Positions 3,150-41,492 of a stretch of DNA of 51,925 nt are shown here, one piece after another. Made by a program: the position numbers and the translations under genes. The DNA comes from an uncultured Bacilli bacterium (GTDB taxonomy: Bacteria; Bacillota_I; Bacilli_A; RF39; UBA660), in NCBI GenBank assembly GCA_947628965.1, contig CANRBV010000005.1, positions 1 to 51,925 of the forward strand, given 5' to 3'. How positions within the stretch are numbered: the stretch's first letter is position 1; each line of letters begins with the position of its first letter. Below the pieces are notes generated by a model. The model ran no database searches. It was not told where the DNA came from and saw only the letters and a program-made list of their open reading frames with translations.

Positions 3150-3671
3150 TTGATGACAAGAAAAGAAAAAAGAGAGTTAATGAAAGATAAGTCGTTGGTA
3201 TGTACTTTGATTATTGACAAATACTTACCACGGCTTTTTATTATGTTTGATCAGCTAACTGATTTAAGACAGCTTGGCAAAGTTACTTACAGTATGAAAT
3301 CTATTTGTGTTACTCGTCTCTTTGCTTTGCTATGTGGTTTAACTTCTATGAACTCCATGACAAATAAATTAAATACGAACATCTCTATTACTAATTTATC
3401 TAAAATTATTAATGAAGAATTATCTGACTTACCTCATTATGATACAATTAATGATATTTTTGATGATTTAAAGATTGATGAATTAAGAAAGATTTAAAAA
3501 TATATTGTTTATGCTTTGATTCGTTCTAAAATGTTTGATAAATTTCGTTACAATGGTAAATTTCAAATTCTTGTGGATGGCACTGGTTTAATCTCTTTTA
3601 ATTATCAACATTGTGATCATTGTTTAGTTAAACAACATAAAGATGGCACTAAAACTTATGAGTTAATTTAG
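3150..3671 (+). pseudogene. Truncated DDE transposase (IS4-superfamily/ISNCY-like)
   Basis: LTDLRQLGKVTY...PHYDTIND; the frame continues past TAA at 3495-3497 as KYIVYALIRSKMF...ILVDGTG...HCDHCL, then ends at 3671 without the rest of the catalytic domain. Confidence 0.8.
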
Positions 3672-6388: not shown

Positions 6389-7333
6389 TTATTTACAACT
6401 AAACCCTCTCGCTTCCATTTCAAAATTAACTACTTTAGCAAGCGATTGATTAGCAAAATAATACTTGCTATCTGTATTGGAAATTTTAGCATCCGCTAAA
6501 TCGATTGACGTATTTACAACAAAATTAGTCCCAGTATTAACAAAAACAGAAGTAATACCCTCTAAATTATTTAGCGTTTCTGATTTTGTTTTCCACTCAT
6601 TTACTAACGTTGTGTAATCATCATTTGTACTGTTAACACTTACATTATCATTAATTTCATACAATTTTTCATTTTTAAATTTATAAGATAATGTTTCTAT
6701 ATCATTTGAACAAACCAATACTTCTTCTTCTAAATCATTTTTTGATAATGTAATATTTGGATAATCACTTATTTCTTTTTGAACAAACAAAATTTTTTCG
6801 GCAGTATTCGTAACACTCTTTTCCAAACTTAAATTAACGGTAATAGAAGAATCTCTAGCAATAATATCATCTAATAAAATTCTTTCCAGCAATGTATTAT
6901 CATCCGTATACAATTCTAAAAAATAATTTTTAGCATCAAAATCAAAACGACTTGTTCCATTATTGGTTGCTTGAAAAGATAAGACTTCATCCTTTAATGA
7001 AAAATCCTTTAATTCTATAGTATCTTCTAGAGTAATCGATAAAGAATCACTTATCGTATATAAAGTAAGTTCTTCTTCTGGCTCTAAAACAGGTTCTTCT
7101 GTTTTTTCATTAGTGTTTGGAGTTTCATAAGTTGTATTTTTCTTATCTTCTTTTAAATAATTTGTAATTGTTGGTAAAAAGAAAATAAAAGCAAAGATTA
7201 AGCCAAACAATACGAATAAAAAAATTGGACTTTGAGATGCGGTTGCTAATTCACCTATTTTCGTAACAGAAAGCTCTTCTTCGTTGACTTTTAAATTTTT
7301 GTAATTCATTTTTTCTTTTTTTTCTTTTGCCAT
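6389..7333 (-). CDS. Membrane-anchored hypothetical protein
   Basis: One N-terminal TM helix followed by an acidic domain; start moved to MAKEK by RBS position. Confidence 0.75.
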   Translation of the reverse strand: MAKEKKEKMNYKNLKVNEEELSVTKIGELATASQSPIFLFVLFGLIFAFIFFLPTITNYLKEDKKNTTYETPNTNEKTEEPVLEPEEELTLYTISDSLSITLEDTIELKDFSLKDEVLSFQATNNGTSRFDFDAKNYFLELYTDDNTLLERILLDDIIARDSSITVNLSLEKSVTNTAEKILFVQKEISDYPNITLSKNDLEEEVLVCSNDIETLSYKFKNEKLYEINDNVSVNSTNDDYTTLVNEWKTKSETLNNLEGITSVFVNTGTNFVVNTSIDLADAKISNTDSKYYFANQSLAKVVNFEMEARGFSCK

Positions 7334-7419
7334 CCATAATCCCTTCATTCTTATAAAAATAATTATAGCACGAAATCTATTCTTTTATCAATTATTTCCT
7401 TGAAAAAATCATTTATTCG

Positions 7420-7848
7420 CTATTTTTTTAATTTTAAAATAATAGAAGTTAAAAGACAAATAAATAGAGCCATGACTATAGCAAATCCATAATGGAATAA
7501 ATTAGAAAAGAATCCCAAGAGTCCATTTATTTTAAAGCCTGACAAAAGTACAAGGACAAAATCAGAGCCAAAATTCACCATTTTACTTATTACGTTAATT
7601 TTGGCATAAATAGAAAACTTATTATAAAAACGAAAAAGAGTGTAATATAGTCCAAAGAGTCCAGGTAAAGATTCCATTAAACTTACTATCAGAGGTAGAC
7701 AAAAAATAAAAACCATAATAATTCCAAATAATAGTAAAATAAAAATAGAACTTTCTTCTTCTTTTGTGGTAATTTTCCCAATTTTTGTAATAGAAAGTTC
7801 TTCCTCATTTATTTTAATATTTTCGTAATTAAAATTTTCATTTTTCAT
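7420..7848 (-). CDS. Hypothetical membrane protein, N-terminus paralogous to 6389-7333
   Basis: NYENIKINEEELSITKIG vs NYKNLKVNEEELSVTKIG; several hydrophobic segments; probable start MKNENF. Confidence 0.6.
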   Translation of the reverse strand: MKNENFNYENIKINEEELSITKIGKITTKEEESSIFILLLFGIIMVFIFCLPLIVSLMESLPGLFGLYYTLFRFYNKFSIYAKINVISKMVNFGSDFVLVLLSGFKINGLLGFFSNLFHYGFAIVMALFICLLTSIILKLKK

Positions 7849-7934
7849 ACCCGATTGCCTTCTTTTGTCTTTATTATAACATGCACAATTAAACAATCGC
7901 AATTGATTTTCTTAAAGCATTTACATTGTATAAA

Positions 7935-8285
7935 TTAATCTTTTGGTTTAAAAATCAAAGTAAGAACAAAAGAAAATAAAACAGCTCCTGTTATCGCACA
8001 AGAACTATATTGTAAAAGTCCTGTAAATAAACCTAGAATTCCATTTTCTTGAAAACCTAAATAAGCCCCTTTATAAAGCATATATCCAAAATTAGAAATA
8101 ATTGTTGTAGCCCCAGCTCCTGCAAAGGAAATGAATTTATCATAAAGTCCAACTAAACCTAAAAAAGCACCAAAAACAGTAAAGAAGCTTGTCACATGAC
8201 CTGGGGTTAATTTTGTATTATCTAAAAATATTTGGGCAAATAAACAAAAAATTCCTGAAAAAAGAAAAGCACAAAGAAAATTCAT
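7935..8285 (-). CDS. spoVAE: Stage V sporulation protein AE
   Basis: AFLFSGIFCLFAQIFLD.TKLTP, FAGAGAT, LIFKPK. Confidence 0.92.
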   Translation of the reverse strand: MNFLCAFLFSGIFCLFAQIFLDNTKLTPGHVTSFFTVFGAFLGLVGLYDKFISFAGAGATTIISNFGYMLYKGAYLGFQENGILGLFTGLLQYSSCAITGAVLFSFVLTLIFKPKD

Positions 8286-9256
8286 GACAACACCTCCAAA
8301 CTTACAGCATGGGCAATACTAGGAATGGATTTCTTTTGATTTGTTGTATCTTTTGAGTGCAAAGAACCTGTGGCAATTAGTAAGATCTTTTTATATTTTT
8401 TATTTTTAAGAATTTTATTAAATAAAACCATAGGTAAAGTGACAGGCCCAGAGGAACCAGAATATACTTCTTGACTTTTTAAAAATATTTCACAACCTGC
8501 ATCCATATGATTTTTAATTTTTATTCCATAATTTACTTTTAAAAATTCGCGAAAAATATCTTTTCCAACACTACCTAAATCCCCTGTTACAATTAAATCG
8601 TAATCATCGACAGTTCTTTTTAAATCATGCAAATGATCTATTAAAACACTTACCGCAGCAGGTGTCATGACAGCACCCATATGCGTAGCATCTTTTTGGT
8701 TATAATCCTCAATTTTTCCAATAGTGGCTGATTCTACTTTAATATTACTTTTTTCGTTTGAAAGTATTGCACCAACTGCACCTGTTGCAGTAAATGTGGT
8801 TGTACTAGCTCTTGGAGCACCATATTCTATAGGAAAACGGAATTGTCTTTCTGCATTTAAATTATGGCTACTCGTAATCATAAGAGCATTTTTTATTGTA
8901 TTCATTTCAATAAAATGCCCTCCTATAATCATACTTTCTAAAAATGTTGCACAAGCACTATAGATTCCAAAAAAAGGATAGGAAAAATTTCTTACGGCAT
9001 AACTTGTAATTCCAAGTTGATTGGATAAATCTCCCCCTAATATTAAATCAATTTTTTTCCCTAACTTATTTCTATAAAGTAAATTATCCATCACTACTTT
9101 TTGCATTTTTACTTCAGCATCAATAAAAGATTTTTCTCCGTAATAATAATCATCCATAGTTAAATCAAATTTACGAATTTGTCCTTCACTTTCTAAAGGC
9201 CCTGCAATTGTAAAAGCATCTTTAATATAAACGTTGTTAAACTTTATACTAGCCAT
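8282..9256 (-). CDS. spoVAD: Stage V sporulation protein AD
   Basis: GGDLSNQ, SSHN..AERQFRFPIEYG, HMGAVM, IVTGDLG, SIPSIAHAV. Confidence 0.95.
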   Translation of the reverse strand: MASIKFNNVYIKDAFTIAGPLESEGQIRKFDLTMDDYYYGEKSFIDAEVKMQKVVMDNLLYRNKLGKKIDLILGGDLSNQLGITSYAVRNFSYPFFGIYSACATFLESMIIGGHFIEMNTIKNALMITSSHNLNAERQFRFPIEYGAPRASTTTFTATGAVGAILSNEKSNIKVESATIGKIEDYNQKDATHMGAVMTPAAVSVLIDHLHDLKRTVDDYDLIVTGDLGSVGKDIFREFLKVNYGIKIKNHMDAGCEIFLKSQEVYSGSSGPVTLPMVLFNKILKNKKYKKILLIATGSLHSKDTTNQKKSIPSIAHAVSLEVLS

Positions 9257-9686
9257 AAAGAATCACCCCTATTATTGCAAAAAGAAAAGCACTTACCATA
9301 CCATATAAAATAACACTACCCGCTAGCTTAAAAAAGTTAGCTCCAATTCCTGTAATAAAACCATCTTTTTTATAATCGAGTCCAGCACTCATAATAGAAT
9401 GAGCAAATCCTGTAGTAGGAAGTATAATACCCATTTTAACTTTTGTAACCCAATTATCAAAAAAACCTAATGCAGTAAATAAACAAGAAAGGAAAATAAC
9501 GACTAAGCAAGTTACTAAATAAGCATCTACTCGAGAAAGTCCTGTAAATTCCATAACAATAGTAGCAAAAACCTCTGCTAAAAAACCAATGAATCCCCCA
9601 ACTAAAAAAGCTACAAGTGCATTTTTACTTTTATTTTCTTTAGGTGTTAATCTTTTAACTAACTTGTTGTATTCATCTTTATTCAT
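9249..9686 (-). CDS. spoVAC: Stage V sporulation protein AC
   Basis: AFLVGGFIG, PTTGFAHS, FKLAGSVILYG; start moved to MNKDE after the GGAGG RBS. Confidence 0.93.
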   Translation of the reverse strand: MNKDEYNKLVKRLTPKENKSKNALVAFLVGGFIGFLAEVFATIVMEFTGLSRVDAYLVTCLVVIFLSCLFTALGFFDNWVTKVKMGIILPTTGFAHSIMSAGLDYKKDGFITGIGANFFKLAGSVILYGMVSAFLFAIIGVILYG

Positions 9687-9704
9687 AAGATAAGCCTCCA
9701 TTTT

Positions 9705-9734
9705 TATTATGAAGGCTTTTTATATTTTTTATAC
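9705..9734 (-). promoter_or_regulatory. SigG-type promoter of spoVA
   Basis: GTATA-18 bp-CATAATA immediately upstream of the spoVAC RBS; spoVA is SigG-dependent in B. subtilis. Confidence 0.7.
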
Positions 9735-9755: not shown

Positions 9756-12707
9756 TTAATCTAAATCTTTTGGTTTATTTCCATTTATAATTCCCCCAGT
9801 TTTTTCATATGTCGCACCAGAAACAACGTGAATACCTCCAGCACAATTATCTTTATTACAAACATTATTTATAATACTTCCACCCGACATTTTAAAATTA
9901 GATCCAGTATCAATATGGACTCCTCCGCCATTCGCATCTGACGTATTATCTTTTATGATACCATTATTGAAATTAATCGTACCATTTGAATTAGCTTGTT
10001 GAAATAAACCTCCTCCACCGACACGAATCGATTTATTTCCAACAATCATTGTTCCTGAATCAATATTTAATGTCCCTGGTCCTGTATATATTCCGCCTCC
10101 TGCTGCTTGTGCTTCATTATTTGCTATTTCTACATTTTTTAAATTCAAAATATTTTTTTCAGAACCGTTAAAACGAATTCCACCGCCAACACCATTTTGA
10201 TTATCAACCTCAGTAGCTACATTATTTGCTATAGTTCCGCCAGTAATATTGTAAATATTCTCCACAGTATTTTCAGAGTTGTTAATATAGAGTCCTCCAC
10301 CACTTTTAGCATGGTTATTTTCTATATTGCCAACGCTCATTTCAAATTCAATTTTTTCATTCATGGGATCAATATTGATTCCTCCACCAAAGGTTTCACT
10401 AGTATTATTTATAAAATCAGTTCCTTTTAATTTAATAATAGCAGATTGTGAAGTGCTATTTCCATGATATTCTAAACCACCACCAGAAGTTTGAGCAACA
10501 TTATTGGATATAACGCCATCGTTAAATTCATATAGGGAACCAGCTACTGAATTATAGGAATATACTCCGCCCCCTGATCCTCCTGCAGTATTTTCGGAAA
10601 TTTCTCCACCGTTCATTTCAAATATGTTTAACGTTATTAAAACAATTCCACCTCCATAACCAGTAGCTTTGTTTTTATTTATTTGGCCACTTTCCAATAC
10701 AATTTTCCCAGTTGAATAAATTCCTCCACCTGCATCTGTTGTTTGATTATTAGAAATACTAGAATTTGAAATTATAAGTGGTCTAGTTTTAGCGTTTTCT
10801 ATAGTTGTTGCATTTGTATTAAAACGTATGCCTCCACCGACTCCGTTAGTAGTTTCTTTTTTTTCAGAAAAATTATTTTCAACTTTTACATTATCAAGTT
10901 TATAAGTGACATTATTCATGTTGGATTGGATATACATTCCACCTCCACTTATAGCGTGGTTATTCGTAATTATGGCATTACTGATTTTTGTTTCTGAAAC
11001 ATTGTTTTTCTTTGTTAATAAATACATTCCTCCACCATAGTTAGCGTGATTATTATCGAAAATGCCTCCCGTGATTTCGTTTGTACTTGAACCATCTTTA
11101 GAATCATCTCCTAACCAAAGAGCTCCGCCATTGGTACCAGCTGTGTTATTGCTAAACGTTCCTCCACTTATCGTTAATTTAGTTTCAATACCATTAGCTA
11201 AATACATTCCCCCACCAAGTCCACTTGCTGTATTATCTTTTATTTCTCCTCCAGTTATTTCAATAGTGATTTCACCACAATTTTGGGATATACCAATACC
11301 AGCACCTTGCCCAGTTGAAGTATTCCCTGATATAGTTCCTCCTTCTATTTTGATCTTTGAACCATTATAACCATCAGTTGCTACGTGAATACCACCACCA
11401 TTAACTCCTGTAGTGTTTAAAACTTTATTATTTGAAACTTTTCCACCCTTCATAATAAAAGTATTGGAAGCTCCGCCATATATCCCTATTCCTCCACCAT
11501 ATTGAGCTTCATTATTTACTATTTCTCCTTCGTTTAAAATTAGGGTGCTACCATTAGCCACTTGGATTCCTCCACCTTTATTCGTAGAAGAGTTGTTTCT
11601 TACGATACCCCCATTTATATTTAAAGTGCTGCTAGATATATCTATTCCTCCACCACTATTTTTTATATTCTTTGCCTTTTCTACTACACTTCCTGTTTCT
11701 AAGTTTAATGTAGAATTATTTGAGGCTATAATTAAAGATTCGTTTGATTCTAGCTCTAAACCAGAAAACGTTATATTTTCTAAGCGTACATTATTATTAT
11801 GATCAATACGTACCATTTCGCTATTAGTTAAACTCGTATCTCTTTGCACTTCATAAATTTGCTTTTTACTAGTTAAATGGCTAGTAATTACTACTTCTTT
11901 TCCTTCTTCATCTAAATTTATTTTATTAACTGGCTTTATATCACTTAATAAACTAATAATTCCACCACTTGGTACTTCTTGATAAGCTTTATTTATCGTT
12001 TTATATGGATTATTATAAGTTCCATCTCCCGTTTCGTCACTACCACTTTCTGCTACATAATACATTCTTGCATATTCAACAGTAACAGCAACTTTTCCTC
12101 TCCAGGTAGCATTCATATTTTCATCGGTTGCTGGGGTTTCTTCATCCATAAAAAGAAACATATTAAATTCTTTTGTTTCTTGTCCTCTTAGAGTAAAATG
12201 ATACAAACTATAAGCTTTCGTTGCTTCTTCTATTACTTTATTTTTAGTATTATCTCCATTTGTTGTCAATTTTAAATCTTGACTAGAGAGTATAGGTGGA
12301 TCATTTTTTATATCCTCTTCACCATCATAAAGCATGACATCTATCCATTGATCATCTAACTTTTTTTCGCCCTCTTTAGCATCAAATGTTTCCAAATTTA
12401 TTGTGGCACTCGCATAGTTGTCACAAATATTGGTTACTTTAAAATGATAGGGTTTAGTTGTTTTAAAAAATTCTTCTTTTTCCTCTTCATTCATGGGATA
12501 AGCTTCCATCAATTGAATATCGGTATTTTCTGTTTCTTCAAAGTTAATTTTAAAACAATCTGATGTAACTAAATTTTGATCTACTTGTCCTTCTGTAAAT
12601 CTCCAAAAGCCATAAGAAATTCCCCCTATTAACAGAGTAATTCCTATAATTCCTATAATAATTGAAAGTATTTGTTTTCTTTTGGATCCTAATTTTGATA
12701 TATTCAT
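9756..12707 (-). CDS. Large surface protein with right-handed parallel beta-helix
   Basis: N-terminal TM/signal ending ISYGFW, DUF1565-like YYVAESGSDETGDGTYNNPYKTINKA, many GG.I..N.A..GGGI repeats. Confidence 0.85.
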   Translation of the reverse strand: MNISKLGSKRKQILSIIIGIIGITLLIGGISYGFWRFTEGQVDQNLVTSDCFKINFEETENTDIQLMEAYPMNEEEKEEFFKTTKPYHFKVTNICDNYASATINLETFDAKEGEKKLDDQWIDVMLYDGEEDIKNDPPILSSQDLKLTTNGDNTKNKVIEEATKAYSLYHFTLRGQETKEFNMFLFMDEETPATDENMNATWRGKVAVTVEYARMYYVAESGSDETGDGTYNNPYKTINKAYQEVPSGGIISLLSDIKPVNKINLDEEGKEVVITSHLTSKKQIYEVQRDTSLTNSEMVRIDHNNNVRLENITFSGLELESNESLIIASNNSTLNLETGSVVEKAKNIKNSGGGIDISSSTLNINGGIVRNNSSTNKGGGIQVANGSTLILNEGEIVNNEAQYGGGIGIYGGASNTFIMKGGKVSNNKVLNTTGVNGGGIHVATDGYNGSKIKIEGGTISGNTSTGQGAGIGISQNCGEITIEITGGEIKDNTASGLGGGMYLANGIETKLTISGGTFSNNTAGTNGGALWLGDDSKDGSSTNEITGGIFDNNHANYGGGMYLLTKKNNVSETKISNAIITNNHAISGGGMYIQSNMNNVTYKLDNVKVENNFSEKKETTNGVGGGIRFNTNATTIENAKTRPLIISNSSISNNQTTDAGGGIYSTGKIVLESGQINKNKATGYGGGIVLITLNIFEMNGGEISENTAGGSGGGVYSYNSVAGSLYEFNDGVISNNVAQTSGGGLEYHGNSTSQSAIIKLKGTDFINNTSETFGGGINIDPMNEKIEFEMSVGNIENNHAKSGGGLYINNSENTVENIYNITGGTIANNVATEVDNQNGVGGGIRFNGSEKNILNLKNVEIANNEAQAAGGGIYTGPGTLNIDSGTMIVGNKSIRVGGGGLFQQANSNGTINFNNGIIKDNTSDANGGGVHIDTGSNFKMSGGSIINNVCNKDNCAGGIHVVSGATYEKTGGIINGNKPKDLD

Positions 12708-12820: not shown

Positions 12821-12985
12821 ATGAATAAGGAGATTATTTTTGTTAGAATTGATGAAGATTTAAAGAAAAAACTTGATATGATTGCTTTAGAAGAACAAAG
12901 AAGTTTAAATAACTTAGTCGTAAGAGTCCTTACTAAATTTATAATGGATTATGAAAAAAAATCTATTTTAGAAGAAAGTAAATAA
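12821..12985 (+). CDS. Arc/CopG-like ribbon-helix-helix DNA-binding protein (54 aa, not in the ORF track)
   Basis: MNKEIIFVRIDEDLKKKLDMIALEEQRSLNNLVVRVLTKFI...; AAGGAG RBS. Confidence 0.85.
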   Translation: MNKEIIFVRIDEDLKKKLDMIALEEQRSLNNLVVRVLTKFIMDYEKKSILEESK

Positions 12986-12986: not shown

Positions 12987-13640
12987 TTAGTAGTTCGAAT
13001 AATATTCTCGAATTTTATCAATTCCCTTTTTTTCATAACGAGAGACCATTACTTGCGTCTTTTTTAATTTTCTAGCTACTTCACTTTGTGTCATATCCTG
13101 TAAATAACGATATTTTAGAATTTGTCTTTCTTCTTCATTTAATTGTTCTAATCCTTCTTGAATTAATAATTTATCTTCTATAGAAATAGGCTCCTTTGTT
13201 GGAATTGTTTCATATAAACTTCTATCTTCTGTATCGTGATTATCCAAACTACTTACCATAATAGATCCTGCAATAATAGCTTGTTCAAGTTCATGAATAT
13301 CCATTTCTAAAAAAAGAGCAAGTTCTGTATTCGTGGGAATTCTTCCCCACTTTTGGGCAAGACTATAGCGAGATGTTTCAATGGATTTATATAATCGTAA
13401 ATAATTAGGATTTACTTTAATTTGTTTTTGCATGGCCAATTGATACATTTCTCCAAAAATAGATTTAAAAGCATAACTTGAAAATTTTGCTACACTACTT
13501 TCTTGATAATTTTTCATAGCTTTTAGAATCCCTAAAACACCTGCTTGATATAAATCTTCTCTTTCTATTCCATAAAAGTAATGATTGGCGATTTTGTAGA
13601 TAAGTCCTGTATTTTCCTTTATAATTTGTTCCGAAGTCAT
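12987..13640 (-). CDS. sigF: SigF/SigG-family sporulation sigma factor, SigF by synteny
   Basis: EDLYQAGVLGILKA, KFSSYA, GRIPT..ELA, DMTQSEVA..L..TQVMVSRYEKK; lies after spoIIAA and before spoVA. Confidence 0.8.
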   Translation of the reverse strand: MTSEQIIKENTGLIYKIANHYFYGIEREDLYQAGVLGILKAMKNYQESSVAKFSSYAFKSIFGEMYQLAMQKQIKVNPNYLRLYKSIETSRYSLAQKWGRIPTNTELALFLEMDIHELEQAIIAGSIMVSSLDNHDTEDRSLYETIPTKEPISIEDKLLIQEGLEQLNEEERQILKYRYLQDMTQSEVARKLKKTQVMVSRYEKKGIDKIREYYSNY

Positions 13641-13649
13641 AACATCCTC

Positions 13650-13982
13650 CTATATTTTAATTAATTGTAATGCAGACAACTCATTTTCTACTTCTTTTAT
13701 ATGCAATCGTTGAATGAATTTTTTTATTGTTTCTGTTACTTCACAAACATAAATTTTTCCTTTATTCACTCGAATAGCACATTTGCTATTTAATAAAGCA
13801 TCGACTCCACTTTCATCAATCGTATTTAATTCATATAAATTATAAACTAAATATTTTATTTTATGTTTTAAAAGCACTGGAACTAAATAATTATTTAATT
13901 CATAGGTTTTTTTACTTGTCAAATTTCCTTTCAAGCGAACAAATAAAACGCCTTTATTGTACTCTAAGTCCATTTGAAACAT
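13650..13982 (-). CDS. spoIIAA: STAS-domain anti-sigma-factor antagonist, SpoIIAA-like
   Basis: GVLFVRLKGNL...LVYNLYELNTIDESG aligns with SpoIIAA VLCIRLTGEL...IVLNLEDLSFMDSSG. Confidence 0.8.
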   Translation of the reverse strand: MFQMDLEYNKGVLFVRLKGNLTSKKTYELNNYLVPVLLKHKIKYLVYNLYELNTIDESGVDALLNSKCAIRVNKGKIYVCEVTETIKKFIQRLHIKEVENELSALQLIKI

Positions 13983-14035: not shown

Positions 14036-14054
14036 TTCGACAAAGGATGTCAAA
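14036..14054. promoter_or_regulatory. Spo0A boxes upstream of spoIIAA
   Basis: Perfect TGTCGAA on - (14036-14042) and near-match TGTCAAA on + (14048-14054). Confidence 0.6.
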
Positions 14055-14078: not shown

Positions 14079-14732
14079 TTATAAAGTTCTTTTTTTGTTT
14101 ATAAAGAAAAGAAAGAGAAAGATAATACCCAAAAATAGTATAGTTAAAGCTAGCAAAAAATTTCCTAGTAAAGGGGTAAGGGGACTTTCAAAAGTATCTA
14201 AATAGACAACACCAAAAATTTCTTTAAAATTATTTTCATTCACCACTTCTTGTTCAAGAATTTTATTTAATGCACGAGTTGCTTCTTCTTGCAAATCTTT
14301 AGGAATAAGCTTAGTCATTCCTTTTATCGTTACACTTGAAGGGGCTTCCATTTTTGCTTCACTATAAGAATAGGTATAGATTTCATCCAATTGTTTTCTT
14401 GTTTTATCATTTAAATCAACTAAATAAACATTTTCACTATCCCAAATAAAATACGTTTTATGTTCTATTCCAGCATAATCGTGAGTAACAAAATAATCGG
14501 TCATCACGTTTGCTTCTATCTTAGCGTATACATCTTGCCTTCTAACACTTTTTAAATCGGCTACAGTAGCGAATCTATTTTTGGCATTTAAATAAAGAAG
14601 CAAGACAAACAAAATTCCAATTATGAAAAAAAGAACCCCAAGAAAAACATTGCGATTGTAACTCAGTTTTTTTAAAAGTTCTTTTTTTGTTTTCATTGGC
14701 AATTTCTCCATTTCTATTAAAGAATATATCAA
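14079..14732 (-). CDS. Hypothetical membrane protein (two TM helices flanking a soluble domain)
   Basis: Hydrophobic segments at both ends; start codon uncertain. Confidence 0.7.
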   Translation of the reverse strand: MIYSLIEMEKLPMKTKKELLKKLSYNRNVFLGVLFFIIGILFVLLLYLNAKNRFATVADLKSVRRQDVYAKIEANVMTDYFVTHDYAGIEHKTYFIWDSENVYLVDLNDKTRKQLDEIYTYSYSEAKMEAPSSVTIKGMTKLIPKDLQEEATRALNKILEQEVVNENNFKEIFGVVYLDTFESPLTPLLGNFLLALTILFLGIIFLFLFFINKKRTL

Positions 14733-14758: not shown

Positions 14759-16237
14759 TTATTCATTTTCCCTTAAAGATTTTATCTTTTCTTTTGCTTC
14801 GTTTATAGAATCAAGATTTGGTTCCATAACATAGGATTTAACGGTTTTATAAGAGTAAGTATATTGATGAGCATCCGTTCCCGTTAAAGAATAGTTAGAA
14901 AAAGACCAAGAAGGCATCTCTTTAATTTGTTTCTTTACTAAAGCCGTTATATTTTCCGTACCTAAATTTGTAATAAATTTACCATTTAAAGCATTTAATA
15001 GATCATTATATTTTAATAGAATTGTTTTTGATAATGCTTTATTTAAAATCGCTTCTAATAATTGTTGTTGGTGTCTAACACGTCCTAAATCCCCATCTGC
15101 TAAACTTTTTCTTTCTCTAGCAAAAGCTAAGGCTTGTTTACCATTTAAATGATTGATACCTTTTTTAAAAGAATAGTTAACAACTTCTTCTTCCTCATAG
15201 TATGCTCTAAATGGTTCACTTACTTCTACATCTACTCCACCTAATTCATCGACAATCTTAATTAAAGAAGTAAAATTAACTTTTGCATAATAATTAATAT
15301 CAATGCCTAGTAAATCTTCAACGGTTTTTACGGAGGTATCAATACCGTGAATTCCTGCATGGGTTATTTTATCTTTTAAATTTGTATCTATCCCATGTAA
15401 TTGAACATAGTAATCTCTTGGAATACTGGTTAGAAGAACTTTATGTGTTTTTGGATTTACAGATACCACCATGTTTACATCACTTCTAGACACACTGGTA
15501 ATTTTTCCATAACTATCAATTCCTGAAATAAATATATTAAAAGGATCATTCGTAATATCAACATTTTTTATTAAATTATCTTGAATTTCAATATCAACAG
15601 AAAATTCATAAATAATTCTTTCTTTATCTTTGAGTTCTTTACACGTATCTTCTAGTAATGTTTTTTGAGCTTCTTCCATCAAAATAGCATCTACATTAGA
15701 TTGTATTAGGGCTTCTAATAAAGCATCCGTATCTTCTACTTCAATATATTCTAAAGATGTTTTTTTATTTAAATATTGTTTGGCTTTTGTAACCCCATCT
15801 TCTTTGGATTTCAAAATACCTATTTTTTTATCTTTAATATCTTTTAATTTTGTATAAGAACTTGTATTTAAAACAATAATACTATAATTCTCAGTATTGA
15901 AATTTCCTTTACTTAGATTATTTAGAAAAAATAAGGTATGAACAAAATAAATTAAAATAACGATAGTGCCAATTATTTTTAAAAGGGTTAGAACTGTTGC
16001 AATTCCTTTTCTTTTCCAACCTTTTTTTAAAGTTAGAAAGAGCATAAAAAAATCAAAAGAAACGAGTCCTACACTAAGAAGTCCAAAATACAAAATAGGC
16101 AAAACATTTAACTTGGCAAGAGCAATTAAAAAGAGAATCGTAAAAGAAAAAGAAACATAAAATAAACGTCGAAATATTTTTTTCTTACCATGTTTTCTTC
16201 TTGTATTTTTAGTATTTGCATTACTCGAATTTTTCAT
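14759..16237 (-). CDS. LCP family glycopolymer transferase, CpsA/Wzg-like
   Basis: Three N-terminal TM helices; FNIFISGID, SRSDVN, TSIPRDYYV, ALAFARER, GD.GR..HQQ. Confidence 0.92.
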   Translation of the reverse strand: MKNSSNANTKNTRRKHGKKKIFRRLFYVSFSFTILFLIALAKLNVLPILYFGLLSVGLVSFDFFMLFLTLKKGWKRKGIATVLTLLKIIGTIVILIYFVHTLFFLNNLSKGNFNTENYSIIVLNTSSYTKLKDIKDKKIGILKSKEDGVTKAKQYLNKKTSLEYIEVEDTDALLEALIQSNVDAILMEEAQKTLLEDTCKELKDKERIIYEFSVDIEIQDNLIKNVDITNDPFNIFISGIDSYGKITSVSRSDVNMVVSVNPKTHKVLLTSIPRDYYVQLHGIDTNLKDKITHAGIHGIDTSVKTVEDLLGIDINYYAKVNFTSLIKIVDELGGVDVEVSEPFRAYYEEEEVVNYSFKKGINHLNGKQALAFARERKSLADGDLGRVRHQQQLLEAILNKALSKTILLKYNDLLNALNGKFITNLGTENITALVKKQIKEMPSWSFSNYSLTGTDAHQYTYSYKTVKSYVMEPNLDSINEAKEKIKSLRENE

Positions 16238-16327: not shown

Positions 16328-17482
16328 TTAAATAGGGATACCACTTGTCAAAGCTTTAAATAAACGATTTCCTAAATTCCAAAGACTTGCCTTTTTTATT
16401 TCTTCTTTCGTAACAACATTTACTTCTTTTAAAATATTTCCTTCTTTATCTAAAACTTCTAAAGTTCCTACTACGGTACCACTTGCAACAGGAGCTTTAA
16501 TAGGATTGACGATTAAATTGTAATCGTATTCTTCTTTCGTGTCGGTCACTTTCTTTAAAATGGTGATATCTTCTTCTACATATAGTTTTGTACTTAACAA
16601 TTGTCCTTTTTCAATTTTTATTTCTCCTAAATCTTGCTCTTTCGTTTTTAAAATATCTAAATTATACGTATTAAAACCATAATTTAACATATTAACTGTA
16701 TCTTTACTTCTCAAATCACTTGTTTCGGCATTCATAACGACAGACAAAAGTCTCATATTTCCTTTTTTAGCCGTTGTTGTAATACAGTAGCCAGCTTGGT
16801 TCGTAAAACCTGTTTTTAAACCATCTACACCTTCATAAAACCTAACTAAACGATTTGTATTTACAAGCCATATACTAGAACCATCTGGTTTTTTTAAGTA
16901 ATCTTCATAAAGAGAAGTATATTCTAAAATTCGTTCATGTTTTAATAATTCTTTAGCCATTATAGACATATCTCTTGCTGTTGTATAGTGATTTTCACTT
17001 TCGAGTCCATGAGGATTATCAAAATGTGTATTTTTAAGTCCTAAATCTTTGGCTTTTTCATTCATGGCATTTACAAAGGCAGAGACACTACCACTCACCT
17101 TTTCAGCCATTGCAACGACCGCATCATTTCCACTTGCAATAGCAATTCCTTTTAATAACTCGTGGACCTTATATTTTTCTCCTGTTTGCAAAAAGATTTG
17201 ACTTCCACCCATACTGGAAGCATTGTCACTAATGATCACTTCATCATCAAAAGATAATCTTCCTGAATCAATAGCTTCCATAATAAGTAACATACTCATG
17301 ACTTTTGTCATGGAAGCAGGGGCAAGTTTTTTATCGGCATTTTTTTCATATAAAACTTTTCCAGTGGAAACTTCCATTAAAAGAGCACTTTCACTATTAA
17401 ATGCTAATTCTTCTGCTTGTACTCTTCCAATAAAGAGAATACCAAGAAGAAAAAGAAATCCAATTTTTTTCATATTAGTCAC
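16328..17482 (-). CDS. dacF: D-Ala-D-Ala carboxypeptidase (S11), DacF-like
   Basis: PASMTKVM, SGNDA, GLKTGFT; LVNTNRLVRFYEGVDG; upstream of spoIIAA-sigF. Confidence 0.8.
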   Translation of the reverse strand: MTNMKKIGFLFLLGILFIGRVQAEELAFNSESALLMEVSTGKVLYEKNADKKLAPASMTKVMSMLLIMEAIDSGRLSFDDEVIISDNASSMGGSQIFLQTGEKYKVHELLKGIAIASGNDAVVAMAEKVSGSVSAFVNAMNEKAKDLGLKNTHFDNPHGLESENHYTTARDMSIMAKELLKHERILEYTSLYEDYLKKPDGSSIWLVNTNRLVRFYEGVDGLKTGFTNQAGYCITTTAKKGNMRLLSVVMNAETSDLRSKDTVNMLNYGFNTYNLDILKTKEQDLGEIKIEKGQLLSTKLYVEEDITILKKVTDTKEEYDYNLIVNPIKAPVASGTVVGTLEVLDKEGNILKEVNVVTKEEIKKASLWNLGNRLFKALTSGIPI

Positions 17483-27751: not shown

Positions 27752-30700
27752 CTAGATGTTTGTATCTTTTGCTTTAAAATCTGTAAGCAATTTCACTTTA
27801 TATAGTTTTGCATTATTTATTACATATCCAAAATCATTTGGAATTTCCTCTCGGTCGTCTCTTGTAATTTTAGAAATTTTAAACAATGTTTGATCAGCAA
27901 CCCCACTACCAATCCATATTCCTTTCGTCAAATCCGCACCAACCTTAAACCATTCTTCATAGGTAAATGGTTTAATCACATCTGGATTATCGATGATAAC
28001 AAAAGAAATTAAGTTCATTTGAGCATCTTTTTTCATACATTCTCCAAACCTTTTTTTCGCCTCATCGCTTAACTTATTCATAAAGGAATAAAGACCATAA
28101 ATAAAGCAATACATTTTCTTTTGATTTTGAATAGAATCAAGTTCCATATGATTTTGTTCGTAAATAGCATAGACTTGATCAATATAATCTAGTATTTTTA
28201 AAAGATTTTCTTCAATATTTTTAGTAATATAGTTTCGAGTTAAATTTTCATTTGTTATAACATGTTCAGACGCATTAAAGAAATAAAGATTTGCATATTT
28301 CTCATAACAAATTTGGTTAATAAAAGCATTAAGAGTGGCATCTACATTTTCAATATCATAAGAACCGATAAAATGTAGGGCATTCTTAGAAAAGTTATAT
28401 TTTTCAACGGTAAGTGTCTCTTTATTTACCCCTACTGCAATAGAAAAATCATGAGATAAAGCACTTTCGATACTTTCAAAATTAACAACTTCAGGTAAAA
28501 CAGGAATTTTCTTAGCTCGATAAAGAGAAGCTTTACTAAATTTTTCACATACTTCCCTTATGTATTCACTCGTATTTTCTTGTTTAATACTTGCTGTTTG
28601 AAATTCATAGATTTTATCCTTTTTAAATAACCCTCTTCCCTTAATCTTCGATGGAACTTTACCACGAACATTACCAAGAATGGCTGAATAATCAAAATCA
28701 TTATTTTGTTGCAATGCATAAATTAAATTAAAGTTTTGTTTTAAACGCATACGGACACTACTTTCACTTGAAGCACTCATAACAAAATATATTCCATAAC
28801 GTGTTGCTTCTCTAGTAATCGTTGTTAATTCTTCATTTAAATCTTCATAGTTTTCAACAAAAGCTTCATAGTTATTAAGGACCACCACAATATTGGGAAG
28901 CGTTTTACCACTTGAACGTAAATAATTTATATAACTACCACCGAAACTAGCAAATAAATTTTTTCGATTTTGTAATTCCTCTTCAATCATTTTAAATAAG
29001 TTAATAATTTTATCGGTATCTCCTAAATAGGCGATATCGCCAACATGAGGAGCAGAAACAAAATTACGTAGAGTTTCTCCGCCAAAATCTAAAAGATAGA
29101 AATTTAATTCGGCAATAGAATACGTTGTCATTCCAGAATAAACGAGTGTTTCTAAAAATTCTTCTTTGCCACTATCCGCAATACCATACACGATGGCATT
29201 TCCACTTTCAAATAAAGGAAGCGTTAAAACGTATTGATTTTGGCTATCTGGATCATCATATTCCCCAATAATAGGATTTAAAATATAATTTTGACGTTTA
29301 AAATTGTATTTACTTTTCAAACTATCCACATAAATTTTTTCGGGTATTTTTTCTAACCATAGTTTTTTAATCTCTATATGTTCATTTCTAGCCAGATCAC
29401 TTAAGTATTTTACAACGCTAGATAACTCTTCTCCCTCAGCATGAACAACTTGAGGTTTTTGCGTATCCTTACTCATAGTTGTAATTCCAATATTATTAAT
29501 CAAATTTACAGAAGTATCTACGTCTTTTTTAAACATTTGACTTGGGATGTATCTTGCTCCAGCCCAAGCAGCTTGTCCCAAAGTAAAGACTTCATCATAT
29601 CCAACTTGTAAATAGAACCTTCCTGTTTTCTTTAAATAAGCAGCGTCTGGTTTTTTTAATACTTCTTGAGAATCTCCTGTATCTTGTACTTTTAAACAAA
29701 CACGAAAACGCGTATTCGACCAAATTTGTTGGTCGACAACACCGCCAGGTTTTTGAGTAGCAAGTATTAAATGAACCCCTAAACTACGTCCCACACGAGC
29801 AACTGAAATTAACTTATCCATAAATTCTGGTTGTTGTTCTTTTAATTCGGCAAACTCATCACTAATAATGAATAAATGGGCAATTTGGTCTTTTCCTTTT
29901 AAGCGACCTTCACGCCACAATTTTTGGTATTTATAAATATCAATGGTACTTTCATTTGTCATGACTCTCGCTTCATTAAATTCTCTTTGACGTCTTTTAA
30001 TTTCACTTTCGATAGATGCAAGAGAACGTGTTAATTCACTTCCATCTAAGTTCGTCATTATTCCTGCTAAATGAGGAAGGGTATAGTAATCGTTTTGAAA
30101 AGCTAAGGCAAGTCCTCCACCCTTATAATCGATTAAAATCACTTGCACTTCATAAGGACTATAATTAACCGCTAAAGAAAGTACATAGGAAATAATAAAT
30201 TCAGATTTACCACTACCCGTTGTTCCAGCAATCAAACCATGGGGTCCATGATATTTTTCGTGTAAATCCAAACTAATAATTTCTCCACCTTTACCAATTC
30301 CAACAGGAGTTTGTAAAGAAAGCATTGGATTACTTTTTTTCCATCGATCTAGTGAATTTAATTGTTCTACTTTCCCAACTTGGTACATTTCTAAGAAATG
30401 ATAAACATCTGGTAAACTGCTTTCTGTTTCACTTTTTATTTCTACTTTAATATTAGCAAGTTCTTTACTACAATTGTAAAGTTCATCCATAGAAGATAAA
30501 TCCATTTTAAAACTTTGGGCTTGCTCATTTAAAACACTTTTAAAAATAGCACATTCTTCTTGATTCACATGAATAAAGTTTTTACATTCATTAGGACAAG
30601 CAGAAACACGATCGACTAACATAATGATACTAAATCCATAATTTTCACTACTTCCTAAAATATTTTTAATTAAATCATAATTATCAATAGATTTAATAGC

Positions 30701-32350
30701 ATCTGTAACAAGAACATAATGAGGAACATGTTTTTGTTTTTCTTTACTTTCACGTCTTTCATGAAAAATTTTATCTAATTGATAAATCATTTCTCTATAT
30801 TCATCATTGGTAGATCCAAAATATCGAAAGGTATGATCGTTCGACCAACTATGAGGTAATGTTTTAACATAATCCCATAAGGATTCATTCTCTAAAGAAG
30901 TAAAGGTTACAATTTTCACTTCATCATAACTATAGTTAGTCATAATTTGTAATAGAAGTCGATCTGCTAATTCTTTTGTTAAAGCAGGACTCCCGACAAT
31001 TCCAGTTGCTTTATTTTCATAAAAAGAATACGTAATAGGAACGTCTCTTAAAATTCGTTTTGTTTCTCCTAGTTCATGAACTAAATCAAGCAAGTTATCT
31101 TCGGTTAGAGAAAAATGTTCTTCAGGATATTGTACTTCAATTTCCATTGGAATATTTCCAATTCCTACGGGAAGGTCTAAAAAATCTTCATCTCCAATTC
31201 TTCTTTGCCATAAACGTACATTATGGGCTCTTATAATATCAAGACATTCAGAAACACTTAGATTATTAGAAACTAAAGAGCTTTTTTGCTTATTCATTTC
31301 CATTTCAATTTCTTTTTCTTTTTTATCTAAATATTTTTTATAAAGTTTTTGACGTTTTTTCTCCCATCTTTTATCTGAAAATTTTTGATAAGCTTTCGTA
31401 AGAGTTGGCCAAAGTAGCGAACTTGCAAGCATTACAATACACATTGCAATAGAGGTTGCAGAATCACTTACGGTTCTTTCTCCTTTGTTAATTGCATTCA
31501 TTGTTGACATAAGCATTACAACACTCATCATAGACATGGTAAGCATTGGGCCAATCGTTAAAATCGCTGGTGTTTGATTTTCATCTTTTTTAAAAGGAGG
31601 AGCATCAATTTTCAAAACAAATTTATTAGTTTTTTCGTAAAATCTAGGGGTACGATAAAAATAATCTTCACCATAGTAATCTAAAGTTAATTCTTCATAA
31701 TTCTCATTAAAATTGGAAATTTCTTTTGTACATGTAGCATATAAAGCAGACGGAGCAACAAGACCATTTGGATTATTCACTAAAAAATAATCAGCACCTT
31801 CTTTGCGCATCAAAATTAGTTTTAAACCAAAAACAAAAATAATATCTCCATATTCTATTTTTTTTACATTACGGACACGTTTTTGATTTACATAAACAAA
31901 ACTATTTTCATCTACCAATTTTAACATATAATATTTTTCTTGCTTTTCAATTGTAAATATTGTACTACTTAATCCTGGTAATTGATAATTAATCTTATTG
32001 TTATCTCCATTTCCAACGGAAATACCTTCATCTTTGACTAAATTAAATTCTCTAAAAGTTTGATCACATAAGGGTGAACAATAAAGGTAATATTTTTCTT
32101 GTTTGTAATTATTTTTAATAGATAATAATTTTCCTTCTTCTAGCTTTACATAAGGGACCATAACTTCTTGATTATCAATAATGAAAGCTTCACGATTGCT
32201 ATATAGCAACCATCCTTCTTCCGTAGCATCAATATTCATCAAATTTATTTTGCGGCCATTTTCAAAATCGCTAAGCCAATAACTCCCTATTCTATTTTTA
32301 GGAAGTGTAAAGAGAATTAATTTATTTTCTTTTATGAGAGCTATTTGCAT
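27752..32350 (-). CDS. essC: Type VII secretion ATPase EssC (YukB-like)
   Basis: Two FHA-like domains, FYRTPR, two TM helices, HGPHGLIAGTTGSGKSE, IDYKGG, DEFAELK, GRSLGVHLILATQKP, two further FtsK-type domains. Confidence 0.95.
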   Translation of the reverse strand: MQIALIKENKLILFTLPKNRIGSYWLSDFENGRKINLMNIDATEEGWLLYSNREAFIIDNQEVMVPYVKLEEGKLLSIKNNYKQEKYYLYCSPLCDQTFREFNLVKDEGISVGNGDNNKINYQLPGLSSTIFTIEKQEKYYMLKLVDENSFVYVNQKRVRNVKKIEYGDIIFVFGLKLILMRKEGADYFLVNNPNGLVAPSALYATCTKEISNFNENYEELTLDYYGEDYFYRTPRFYEKTNKFVLKIDAPPFKKDENQTPAILTIGPMLTMSMMSVVMLMSTMNAINKGERTVSDSATSIAMCIVMLASSLLWPTLTKAYQKFSDKRWEKKRQKLYKKYLDKKEKEIEMEMNKQKSSLVSNNLSVSECLDIIRAHNVRLWQRRIGDEDFLDLPVGIGNIPMEIEVQYPEEHFSLTEDNLLDLVHELGETKRILRDVPITYSFYENKATGIVGSPALTKELADRLLLQIMTNYSYDEVKIVTFTSLENESLWDYVKTLPHSWSNDHTFRYFGSTNDEYREMIYQLDKIFHERRESKEKQKHVPHYVLVTDAIKSIDNYDLIKNILGSSENYGFSIIMLVDRVSACPNECKNFIHVNQEECAIFKSVLNEQAQSFKMDLSSMDELYNCSKELANIKVEIKSETESSLPDVYHFLEMYQVGKVEQLNSLDRWKKSNPMLSLQTPVGIGKGGEIISLDLHEKYHGPHGLIAGTTGSGKSEFIISYVLSLAVNYSPYEVQVILIDYKGGGLALAFQNDYYTLPHLAGIMTNLDGSELTRSLASIESEIKRRQREFNEARVMTNESTIDIYKYQKLWREGRLKGKDQIAHLFIISDEFAELKEQQPEFMDKLISVARVGRSLGVHLILATQKPGGVVDQQIWSNTRFRVCLKVQDTGDSQEVLKKPDAAYLKKTGRFYLQVGYDEVFTLGQAAWAGARYIPSQMFKKDVDTSVNLINNIGITTMSKDTQKPQVVHAEGEELSSVVKYLSDLARNEHIEIKKLWLEKIPEKIYVDSLKSKYNFKRQNYILNPIIGEYDDPDSQNQYVLTLPLFESGNAIVYGIADSGKEEFLETLVYSGMTTYSIAELNFYLLDFGGETLRNFVSAPHVGDIAYLGDTDKIINLFKMIEEELQNRKNLFASFGGSYINYLRSSGKTLPNIVVVLNNYEAFVENYEDLNEELTTITREATRYGIYFVMSASSESSVRMRLKQNFNLIYALQQNNDFDYSAILGNVRGKVPSKIKGRGLFKKDKIYEFQTASIKQENTSEYIREVCEKFSKASLYRAKKIPVLPEVVNFESIESALSHDFSIAVGVNKETLTVEKYNFSKNALHFIGSYDIENVDATLNAFINQICYEKYANLYFFNASEHVITNENLTRNYITKNIEENLLKILDYIDQVYAIYEQNHMELDSIQNQKKMYCFIYGLYSFMNKLSDEAKKRFGECMKKDAQMNLISFVIIDNPDVIKPFTYEEWFKVGADLTKGIWIGSGVADQTLFKISKITRDDREEIPNDFGYVINNAKLYKVKLLTDFKAKDTNI

Positions 32351-32363
32351 ATTACTACCCCTT

Positions 32364-32618
32364 TTAATATAAAATTAGTTTAGATCCATTTCTAATTTTA
32401 CTTTCTTTTACATATTCTTCTTCATTTATTTTTTCCCCTGTTTCTTGATCATACAAACAGGAAGTATGATCATCAATAAAGGCTTGATTACTTTCTTCTT
32501 CAATTATTTGAACAATCAAATTTTTAATTGTTCCTACTTTTTTTGTTGTTGGAATATAAAGATCAATGTTTTTTTCCAACATAGGAACGGTAACAACAAC
32601 GTATATTTTACTATTCAT
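32364..32618 (-). CDS. EsaB/YukD-like ubiquitin-fold protein
   Basis: 84 aa, IDLYIP...IRNGSKLILY ending; directly upstream of essC. Confidence 0.75.
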   Translation of the reverse strand: MNSKIYVVVTVPMLEKNIDLYIPTTKKVGTIKNLIVQIIEEESNQAFIDDHTSCLYDQETGEKINEEEYVKESKIRNGSKLILY

Positions 32619-32851
32619 TATACCCTCCTAAAAAAACAAATGAGCAAAATAACAAGAAGCATTAAGAAAAAAACACCAATTGCACAAAAAATAGCAAAAC
32701 GAATATTTTTTTTCTTTTCTACTACTGTTTCTATCTCAACTGTTTTATCAATACCTGGAACATAAGAATGAGCAAGACTTAATTTTGCTTTACAATTGAT
32801 ACAAATTTGATCCCCAGGATGGGTTTCATAACCACACTTTTCACACCTCAT
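32618..32851 (-). CDS. Zinc-ribbon single-pass membrane protein (full copy)
   Basis: MRCEKCG...CINC, C-terminal TM helix; stop overlaps the esaB-like start. Confidence 0.8.
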   Translation of the reverse strand: MRCEKCGYETHPGDQICINCKAKLSLAHSYVPGIDKTVEIETVVEKKKNIRFAIFCAIGVFFLMLLVILLICFFRRV

Positions 32852-32908
32852 GTTTATCACCCTTTATTATGTCTTTATTTTACCATAAGGAAAAATAAAA
32901 GAAAAGAA
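32687..32908. repeat. 222-bp direct repeat, copy 1
   Basis: Matches 34462-34683 (offset 1775 bp); no differences seen by eye. Confidence 0.92.
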
Positions 32909-32935
32909 AAACCAAATGATTTCACTTGATTTTTC

Positions 32936-34126
32936 CTATTTTTCTAAAAGCCAATCAAAGATATTTATTTGTTTTATTCCGTTATAAGATGTATATGGGG
33001 TGTAATCTGTTGTAAGTAAATATTTGGGATTATGGTCATTAATTATATCTAAAGATTTTAGTTCTCGTTCTAAAGTTTTTTCATCTTTTACAGTATAACT
33101 TACTTGATAATACTCTACACCTTTTTCATTTATAGCAACAAAATCAACTTCATTCATATCTTGTTTTCCAATATAAACTTCATATCCTCTTCTTAATAGT
33201 TCTAAATAAACAATATTTTCTAAAATACGGCCATCATCACCTTTTGTACTTCCTAACAAATAATATCTTAAACCAACATCAGAAACATAATATTTTGCCC
33301 CCGAAGTTAAATAATTTTTTCCTTTTATATCGTATCTTGGTGCTTTATATAAAACAAAAGATTCAACCAAAGCATCTAAATATTTTTCAACAGTCGGTAC
33401 GGATATTTTACGTCCATTTGAAGTCATTGTATTTGATATACTTGTACTAGAACAAATATTTCCAATATTATCAAACATAAACTTAATGATATCTTTTAAC
33501 ATGCCAATGTCTGAAATATCTTTTCGCTCTGCTATATCATTTACAATAACGGTATTATACAAGCCATCCAAATACATTTTAATATCTTTTGCATTATTTA
33601 GCATTAAAGTATAGGGAAAAGAACTTTTGGTAATATAATCAACATATTTTTTTTGAATATCATTTTCTCCCACATAAGAAATGTATTCTTTAAAAGATAA
33701 AGGTAACATTTTTATTTCAACGTATCTTCCTGATAGTAAGGTTGCTAATTCCCCTGATAATAATTTTGAATTCGAACCAGTAATATATAAATCCACATTC
33801 TTTTTTATGTATAAACTATCACAGGCTTTTTGAAAATCTATTACTTTTTGTACTTCATCAATAAAAACATAATTTTGTTTATTTTTTATTAATTTAGAAT
33901 CAATATACTCATATAAATCTTTATAATCTCTGATATTATCGAAAGTATAATCTTCTAAATTAAGATAGATAATTTGCTCATTAGAAACCCCCTTACTTTT
34001 TAAATATTCTATATACAATTCATATAAAGTTGATTTACCACATCTTCTTATACCTGTAACAATTTTAATTAATTTTTTATCTTTAAATTGAATTAACTGA
34101 TTTAAATATTCGGGTCTTTCTATCAT
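32936..34126 (-). CDS. AAA_14 + DUF4143 family ATPase
   Basis: GIRRCGKST, FIDEVQ, ITGSNS, KYYVSDVGL, LENIVYLELLRRG, EVDFVA...YYQV. Confidence 0.92.
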   Translation of the reverse strand: MIERPEYLNQLIQFKDKKLIKIVTGIRRCGKSTLYELYIEYLKSKGVSNEQIIYLNLEDYTFDNIRDYKDLYEYIDSKLIKNKQNYVFIDEVQKVIDFQKACDSLYIKKNVDLYITGSNSKLLSGELATLLSGRYVEIKMLPLSFKEYISYVGENDIQKKYVDYITKSSFPYTLMLNNAKDIKMYLDGLYNTVIVNDIAERKDISDIGMLKDIIKFMFDNIGNICSSTSISNTMTSNGRKISVPTVEKYLDALVESFVLYKAPRYDIKGKNYLTSGAKYYVSDVGLRYYLLGSTKGDDGRILENIVYLELLRRGYEVYIGKQDMNEVDFVAINEKGVEYYQVSYTVKDEKTLERELKSLDIINDHNPKYLLTTDYTPYTSYNGIKQINIFDWLLEK

Positions 34127-34144
34127 CTGTATCCCTCCATAAAC

Positions 34145-34683: not shown

Positions 34684-34693
34684 GAATTCATTG

Positions 34694-41481: not shown

Positions 41482-41492
41482 ATCAAATTCCT

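Follow-up and report, generated by a model that had tools for sequence, protein, structure and literature searches.

In a 51,925-nucleotide stretch of DNA from an uncultured Bacilli bacterium (GenBank assembly GCA_947628965.1, contig CANRBV010000005.1, positions 1 to 51,925; hereafter, the window), a gene for a sporulation sigma factor resembling sigma F stands immediately behind a gene for a SpoIIAA-like STAS protein. The kinase gene spoIIAB is missing from its conserved place between the two, and the residue corresponding to the phosphorylated serine of SpoIIAA is a glutamate (Glu57). We read the locus as the spoIIA (sigF) operon of a group of AT-rich, small-genome, uncultured gut Bacilli in which spoIIAB has been deleted, the STAS protein has lost its phosphosite, and the STAS protein may still regulate sigma F independently of phosphorylation; our confidence in this reading as a whole is evenly balanced. 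The remaining unit would be a two-gene STAS-sigF operon behind a Spo0A box, in which the cycle of phosphorylation by SpoIIAB and dephosphorylation by SpoIIE would not be used and the STAS protein would act on sigma F through phosphorylation-independent protein binding.

The partner switch formed by SpoIIAA, SpoIIAB, and SpoIIE is the textbook basis of forespore-only activation of sigma F. All three genes are counted in the conserved sporulation core in the account given in 10.1101/2022.02.25.481979. A lineage of 73 species-level genomes that has retained sigma F, SpoIIAA, and spoVA among its sporulation genes, with the kinase gene out of the operon and the phosphosite erased, suggests either that compartment-specific control of sigma F can be built differently or that the clade manages without such control. 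It offers a natural minimal system in which to ask what a STAS protein does without its kinase, and it makes the label “SpoIIAA present” an unsafe basis for inferring function when sporulation is predicted from metagenomes. The absence of spoIIAB and spoIIE in the order RF39, to which the clade probably belongs (see below), is already published, as stated in the passages of PMC10868615 on that order. In the literature searched, we found no description of a retained, strongly conserved, nonphosphorylatable SpoIIAA directly before sigF.

The STAS-sigF gene pair

Only 9 bp separate the STAS stop codon from the sigma start codon, leaving no room there for a gene of ~140 codons. Read on the coding strand, the junction is TAG-GAGGATGTT-ATG, with a GGAGGA Shine-Dalgarno motif abutting the STAS stop codon. 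Because the ribosome-binding site of the sigma gene adjoins that codon, the two proteins are probably made together by translational coupling. To compare the window with its relatives, we used 73 related loci from one scan of species-representative genomes, with up to 10 kb visible on each side; all come from uncultured metagenome-assembled genomes (MAGs) labelled Bacilli, Tenericutes, or Mycoplasma sp. In all 73, the sigma gene begins −7 to +26 bp from the STAS stop codon, and with the window included, spoIIAB lies between the two genes in none of 74 genomes. An arrangement repeated in 73 of 73 related loci is more than chance, and the claim of an earlier note on this DNA, made from the window alone, that spoIIAB is gone from its conserved position thus extends to every related genome in the set.

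Upstream of the pair, 69 of 72 regions (the window and the 71 loci with at least 200 bp of upstream sequence) contain the exact heptamer TGTCGAA, which we take to be the Spo0A box consensus, 49 to 74 bp (mostly 58 to 64 bp) before the STAS start codon and always in forward orientation (chance background, 0.028 per 200 bp). The surroundings also follow the order known from Bacillus subtilis, namely, dacF, spoIIA, and spoVA. Homologues of the dacF-like gene of the window are found in 34 of the 73 related loci, mostly upstream of the STAS gene. The spoVAC, spoVAD, and spoVAE genes are found in 46, mostly directly after the sigma gene and in 41 cases within 400 bp of its end. By its gene content and order, the locus is the ancestral dacF/spoIIA/spoVA region, and the STAS gene takes the place of SpoIIAA in it, as the first gene of a spoIIA operon in dacF and spoVA surroundings. 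The motif G[CT]ATA-N17/18-CATA[ACT]TA, presumably the consensus of forespore-type promoters, has an exact match in 24 of 47 regions upstream of spoVAC (background, 0.002 per 100 bp). These two upstream signals, the Spo0A box and the spoVAC promoter, would be consistent with a functioning sporulation programme, with Spo0A activating the operon and a forespore sigma factor reading spoVA.

The sigma open reading frame (ORF) matches Pfam Sigma70 regions 2, 3, and 4. Among NCBIfam models, its bit scores are 125.6 for SigF (TIGR02885), 81.5 and 75.1 for SigG, 80.8 for FliA/WhiG, and 66.8 for SigB, each below the cutoff of the model concerned; the curated SigF cutoff is 321.45, and the score for the SigB/F/G subfamily is 136.7 against a cutoff of 234.35. 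The closest solved structure is the sigma F chain 1l0o_C (E value of 1e-25, 94 bits), followed by SigA (48 bits). Relative to solved sigma F, the N terminus is ~27 residues shorter, with residue 4 of the query aligning to residue 31 of 1l0o_C. When 135 of the best 150 sigma representatives were run against NCBIfam (matches at an E value of ≤1e-55), every one that matched scored the SigF-named model above both SigG models, and none reached a SigG cutoff. A FastTree phylogeny of sigma proteins, with six canonical-length SigF-like representatives as the root, places the clade in one group beside the canonical-length SigF-like proteins; the tree contains no SigG or SigB references, and we treat it as descriptive only because FastTree joins long branches readily. 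By profile scores, best solved relative, and gene order, we classify the factor as SigF-like, in agreement with the name given to it in the earlier note. Lengths of only 205 to 225 amino acids (aa) are also frequent among its closest relatives outside the clade, compared with 234 to 256 aa for the canonical-length SigF-like proteins. The short form might go with the loss of spoIIAB, for instance if a single deletion had removed the kinase gene together with the start of sigF.

The STAS ORF has a Pfam STAS match (E value of 7.4e-11), and its best NCBIfam model is SpoIIAA (TIGR02886), at 45.9 bits and below the curated equivalog cutoff of 114.75. In a phmmer search against solved structures, SpoIIAA of Geobacillus (1th8_B, E value of 2.8e-9) and of B. 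subtilis (1auz_A) ranked first. A model of the protein built with AlphaFold2 (AF2) from 30 relatives is confident (pLDDT of 94), and its top Foldseek matches are the SpoIIAA chains 1tid_B and 1thn_B from structures of the SpoIIAB complex (TM scores of 0.90 to 0.91; 30 to 31% identity); STAS domains of transporters and stressosomes are also matched. Look-alikes in the ESM Atlas are generic STAS clusters of Bacillota only. A protein search returned 180 relatives, the best 120 of which are 107 to 138 aa long; among the relatives listed, few are named, and the names are no more specific than “STAS domain-containing protein [Bacilli bacterium].”

The STAS gene is intact in all 73 related loci and is under purifying selection. 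Ratios of nonsynonymous to synonymous substitution rates (dN/dS) against the six closest loci are 0.10 to 0.23 for STAS and 0.10 to 0.30 for sigma, values that are rough because synonymous sites are close to saturation. Averaged over genome pairs, identity amounts to 60.6% for STAS and 49.3% for sigma, and STAS is more strongly conserved than sigma in 94% of the pairs; 13 alignment columns are invariant across 57 STAS sequences. Placed on the secondary structure of the AF2 model, the invariant and near-invariant columns fall in the three loops around position 57 and in helix alpha1 and strand beta3 (residues 27 to 48), a segment in which the protein of the window diverges from the two solved SpoIIAA sequences aligned with it. 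These patterns of substitution indicate a functional STAS gene, and the retention of SpoIIAA asserted in the earlier note is borne out by them.

Loss of the phosphosite and the search for kinase and phosphatase

The STAS protein of the window carries the motif NT-I-D-E-S-G-VDAL. In ungapped phmmer alignments to 1th8_B (“..fMDSSGlgvil”) and to 1auz_A, Glu57 falls on the phospho-serine. Across the window and the 73 loci, position 57 is Glu in 57 proteins, Asp in 8, Asn in 4, Ser in 2, and Val, Phe, or Leu in 1 each, so that it is acidic in 65 of 74. The flanks of the motif are kept (Asp56 in 73 of 74, Gly59 in 74 of 74). Position 58 is Ser in 31 and Thr in 6; in the other 37, it is nonphosphorylatable (Ala, Asp, Ile, Cys, Val, Glu, Pro, Asn, Phe, or Arg). 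The two genomes with Ser57 are sisters nested within Glu57 lineages in the sigma tree, and both are without spoIIAB at the locus; the basal members of the clade combine Val, Phe, or Asn at residue 57 with Ile at residue 58.

The common theme across the clade is therefore a lost phosphosite, for which Glu is the commonest but not a universal replacement. The glutamate reported in the earlier note does lie at the site of the phospho-serine. The further idea of a phosphomimic is too specific, since Glu is not universal and the basal members carry Val, Phe, or Asn. The route that would have rescued phosphorylation, a kinase acting on the adjacent serine, finds that serine unconserved, with Ser or Thr in half of the proteins (37 of 74). 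Because residues 57 and 58 are without a conserved Ser or Thr, the classical cycle could not serve as the switch across the clade.

A Pfam scan of 43 of the window's 49 ORFs that are 90 aa or longer gave no match to HATPase_c, HATPase_c_2, or SpoIIE/PP2C; the six ORFs outside the scan are antisense or intergenic. The same families were absent from representatives of 237 of the 384 clusters formed by ORFs of at least 90 aa in the 73 loci; of the other clusters, 11 are homologues of window proteins already scanned and 136 are unscanned singletons. The 365-aa protein P0132 was considered as a SpoIIAB-SigF fusion and rejected, as its N terminus is a second sigma region 2.

Beyond the scanned neighborhoods, Field et al. 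2024 (PMC10868615) describe, in their passages on RF39, spoIIAB and spoIIE as reduced in presence or wholly absent in that order. The clade studied here is probably RF39 of the GTDB, judging from the labels of the related genomes, the low G+C content of the window (~27%), the spoVAD gene in the window and the sortase and SpoIIIAH genes in related loci, the pattern of gene loss, and the names used in the GTDB. The presence of spoVAD, sortase, and SpoIIIAH fits the description of RF39 in the same passages better than that of RFN20 or ML615J-28. The earlier note had concluded that the partner switch is lost. As far as the kinase gene at the locus and the phosphosite are concerned, this stands; the genome-wide loss of spoIIAB and spoIIE goes further than the evidence, which covers the 52-kb window and flanks of up to 10 kb. 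Loss of kinase and phosphatase from the whole genome, like all that we propose below for the binding partner of the STAS protein, is something that we infer.

Possible roles of the STAS protein

Compared with the SpoIIAA-SpoIIAB-sigma F switch of B. subtilis and Geobacillus, the clade has the same setting (dacF upstream, spoVA downstream, and a Spo0A box upstream), a STAS fold with a TM score of 0.90 to SpoIIAA in 1tid and 1thn, and a sigma factor whose best solved relative is sigma F. It differs in that spoIIAB is absent from between the genes (74 of 74), the phospho-serine is replaced (by Glu or Asp in 65 of 74), both proteins score under their equivalog cutoffs, the sigma factor is ~27 residues shorter at its N terminus, and SpoIIE is not seen locally. 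Turicibacter sanguinis and the spore-forming Erysipelotrichales are related low-GC Bacilli with trimmed sets, for which all four sporulation sigma factors are reported in the relevant passages of PMC13492147 and 10.1101/2022.02.25.481979. In contrast to the clade, T. sanguinis still encodes SpoIIAA and SpoIIAB alongside sigma F (J3478_01580, J3478_01575, and J3478_01570, as listed in PMC13492147), which makes the loss of spoIIAB here unusual.

If the STAS protein regulates sigma F by phosphorylation-independent binding, the contact would probably involve the usual STAS face, that is, the beta2-alpha1, beta3-alpha2, and beta4-alpha3 loops, together with the unusually conserved helix alpha1. We tentatively place first, while rating it somewhat below an even prospect, a target in the form of an anti-sigma protein encoded elsewhere in the genome that is either not a kinase or too diverged to be annotated. 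There is a precedent for the STAS side of such a pair. RsfA of Mycobacterium tuberculosis is a nonphosphorylated, single-domain STAS antagonist that acts on a GHKL-type anti-sigma factor of the same genome. The STAS protein of the clade resembles antagonists of this type in being a single domain without serine phosphorylation and differs in that a GHKL partner was not found in the local scans. Unorthodox wiring of STAS, anti-sigma, and sigma domains in a spore former is also described in the available account of sigma-SsdA and SipA of Actinoplanes missouriensis (PMC10733313). In that system, a single polypeptide joins the STAS domain to the sigma factor, and the STAS domain binds an anti-sigma domain, whereas STAS and sigma are separate proteins in the clade.

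The target might instead be sigma F itself, with the STAS protein replacing the lost kinase as a stoichiometric holder, anti-sigma factor, or activator, a proposal that takes up the direct STAS-sigma interaction raised in the earlier note and that we consider unlikely. It would agree with the adjoining STAS and sigma genes in 74 of 74 genomes, often with a Shine-Dalgarno motif at the stop codon or an overlap, with the stronger conservation of STAS than of sigma, and with the fact that no other partner gene was found in the scanned neighborhoods. Helix alpha1 (residues 27 to 44) is nearly invariant in the clade but different in the two solved SpoIIAA sequences aligned with it, which would fit a new binding surface. 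Against direct contact, binding of a sigma factor by a STAS domain has, to our knowledge, no precedent. In the Actinoplanes fusion, as PMC10733313 presents it, the STAS domain binds the anti-sigma domain and not the sigma domain. The protein collection contained no natural STAS-sigma fusion either; its sole longer relative, P0271 (321 aa, on a 1,422-bp contig), was rejected as a fusion because a frameshift following residue 62 makes the STAS gene run on into the sigma gene. P0271 reflects either an error of sequencing or a pseudogene carried by one population. A prediction of the complex of sigma and STAS from an alignment of each protein scored 0.00 against a mark of 0.32 with the controls not run, and it is no evidence either way. 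The larger proposal that an order-level lineage is truly without SpoIIAB and SpoIIE, and that a descendant of SpoIIAA binds sigma F in a two-protein forespore switch independent of phosphorylation, is similarly doubtful.

A role unrelated to sigma F is improbable in our judgment. The STAS protein would then have been recruited to bind another protein or a ligand, and sigma F would be controlled by the timing of its transcription only. STAS domains are versatile, as the transporter and stressosome matches illustrate, and no sigma-linked partner was found. However, strict colocation with sigF behind a single Spo0A box across the genomes examined points to a role tied to sigma, and some restraint on sigma F is to be expected since sigma F is harmful in B. 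subtilis when its anti-sigma factor is missing.

It is very unlikely that the canonical switch is intact, with spoIIAB and spoIIE located elsewhere and the kinase phosphorylating Ser58 beside Glu57. The protein of the window does carry Ser58, the inspection extends to 52 kb of its genome, and the wording of Field et al. on these genes is not a plain “absent.” On the other side, position 58 varies as described, neither the window nor the scanned neighborhoods yielded a GHKL or PP2C gene, and RF39 is reported to be without both genes in the RF39 passages of PMC10868615. The residue at position 57 also speaks against this possibility: in B. subtilis SpoIIAA, an acidic side chain in place of the phosphorylated serine imitates the inactive form, which is unable to bind the kinase. 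The idea that the STAS gene is a functionless relic carried along with sigF is barely conceivable and already contradicted by the conservation data, for although the known partner gene is gone and one database copy (P0271) is frameshifted, the low dN/dS, the intact gene in every locus, the invariant columns, the conservation exceeding that of sigma, and the confidently predicted fold all bespeak a protein in use.

Several points weigh against the preferred reading of a STAS-sigF operon with phosphorylation-independent control. The partner of the STAS protein is a candidate, whichever target is favored. Neither gene reaches its curated cutoff, SpoIIAA for the one and SigF for the other, and their orthology therefore rests on best-hit rank and gene order. 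Because no member of the clade has been cultured, sporulation is predicted and unproven. The absence of spoIIAB and spoIIE applies to 52 kb of this genome and to flanks of at most 10 kb around each related locus, and the placement of the clade in RF39 is itself indirect. The words “reduced presence or complete absence” leave room for genomes that keep a kinase, and the annotation described in that part of PMC10868615 is based on KEGG and could miss a diverged one.

Other features of the locus and the window

Coordinates of the operon, its neighbors, and the remaining features are collected in Table 1. No link of the LytR_cpsA_psr or DUF6709 gene to the control of sigma is evident; homologues of the former occur in 38 of the 73 related loci, mostly upstream of the STAS gene, and homologues of the latter occur in 12. 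The spoVA genes of the window are followed by scpA and scpB, which are found in 17 and 16 of the related loci, respectively. The true start of spoVAC is likely the ATG at position 9686, which is preceded by GGAGG, as the ATG at 9701 in the ORF list falls inside the ribosome-binding site.

Table 1. Positions of features in the window, counted from its first nucleotide
Feature	Position	Strand	Remarks
SpoIIAA-like STAS gene	13650..13982	-	110 aa; Glu57 replaces the phospho-serine
SigF-like sporulation sigma gene	12987..13640	-	217 aa
Spacer, STAS stop to sigma start	13641..13649	-	9 bp; GGAGGA ribosome-binding site of the sigma gene
Presumed Spo0A-box heptamer, TGTCGAA (coding strand)	14036..14042	-	60 bp upstream of the STAS start codon
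DUF6709 membrane-protein gene	14079-14732	-	Pfam; between dacF and the STAS gene
LytR_cpsA_psr gene	14759-16237	-	Pfam; between dacF and the STAS gene
dacF-like D-alanyl-D-alanine carboxypeptidase gene	16328..17482	-	Peptidase_S11, E value of 8.6e-84; upstream of the operon
spoVAC, spoVAD, spoVAE	7935..9701	-	SpoVAD, E value of 2.2e-101; SpoVAC_SpoVAEB twice; downstream of the sigma gene
Putative forespore-type promoter	9705..9734	-	GTATA, 18-nt spacer, CATAATA; upstream of spoVAC
HicB-like/ribbon-helix-helix ORF	12821-12985	+	54 aa, convergent; Pfam HicB, E value of 3.9e-5; between sigF and spoVAC
Repeat-rich protein gene	9756-12707	-	983 aa; no Pfam match; between sigF and spoVAC
160-aa ORF	7420-7902		No Pfam match
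319-aa ORF	6389-7348		No Pfam match
Probable transposase fragment	3150-3497		Short ORF; DDE_Tnp_1-associated domain only, E value of 3.4e-10
Type VII secretion-like region	27752-42804		Looks like a polymorphic toxin locus
FtsK/SpoIIIE-family ATPase gene	27752-32350		1532 aa; in the type VII-like region
Hanks-type protein kinase gene	34694-35404		236 aa; adjoins the type VII-like features
Gene for a protein with an ADP-ribosyltransferase C terminus	35822-40900		1692 aa; exoenzyme family PF03496, E value of 1.1e-15; in the type VII-like region
Gene for a protein with a WXG100 match	42157-42804		215 aa; in the type VII-like region

The HicB-like ORF and the 983-aa protein have homologues downstream of the sigma gene in the related loci L001 to L003, L005, L006, and L033, and L004 has the HicB-like ORF only. 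In most other spoVA-bearing loci, spoVAC lies directly 3' of sigF, and the pair looks like an insertion in one sub-branch. The 319-aa ORF is kept between spoVAE and scpA in 17 of the 73 loci. In addition to the genes listed in Table 1, the type VII secretion-like region contains several small ORFs that match no family.

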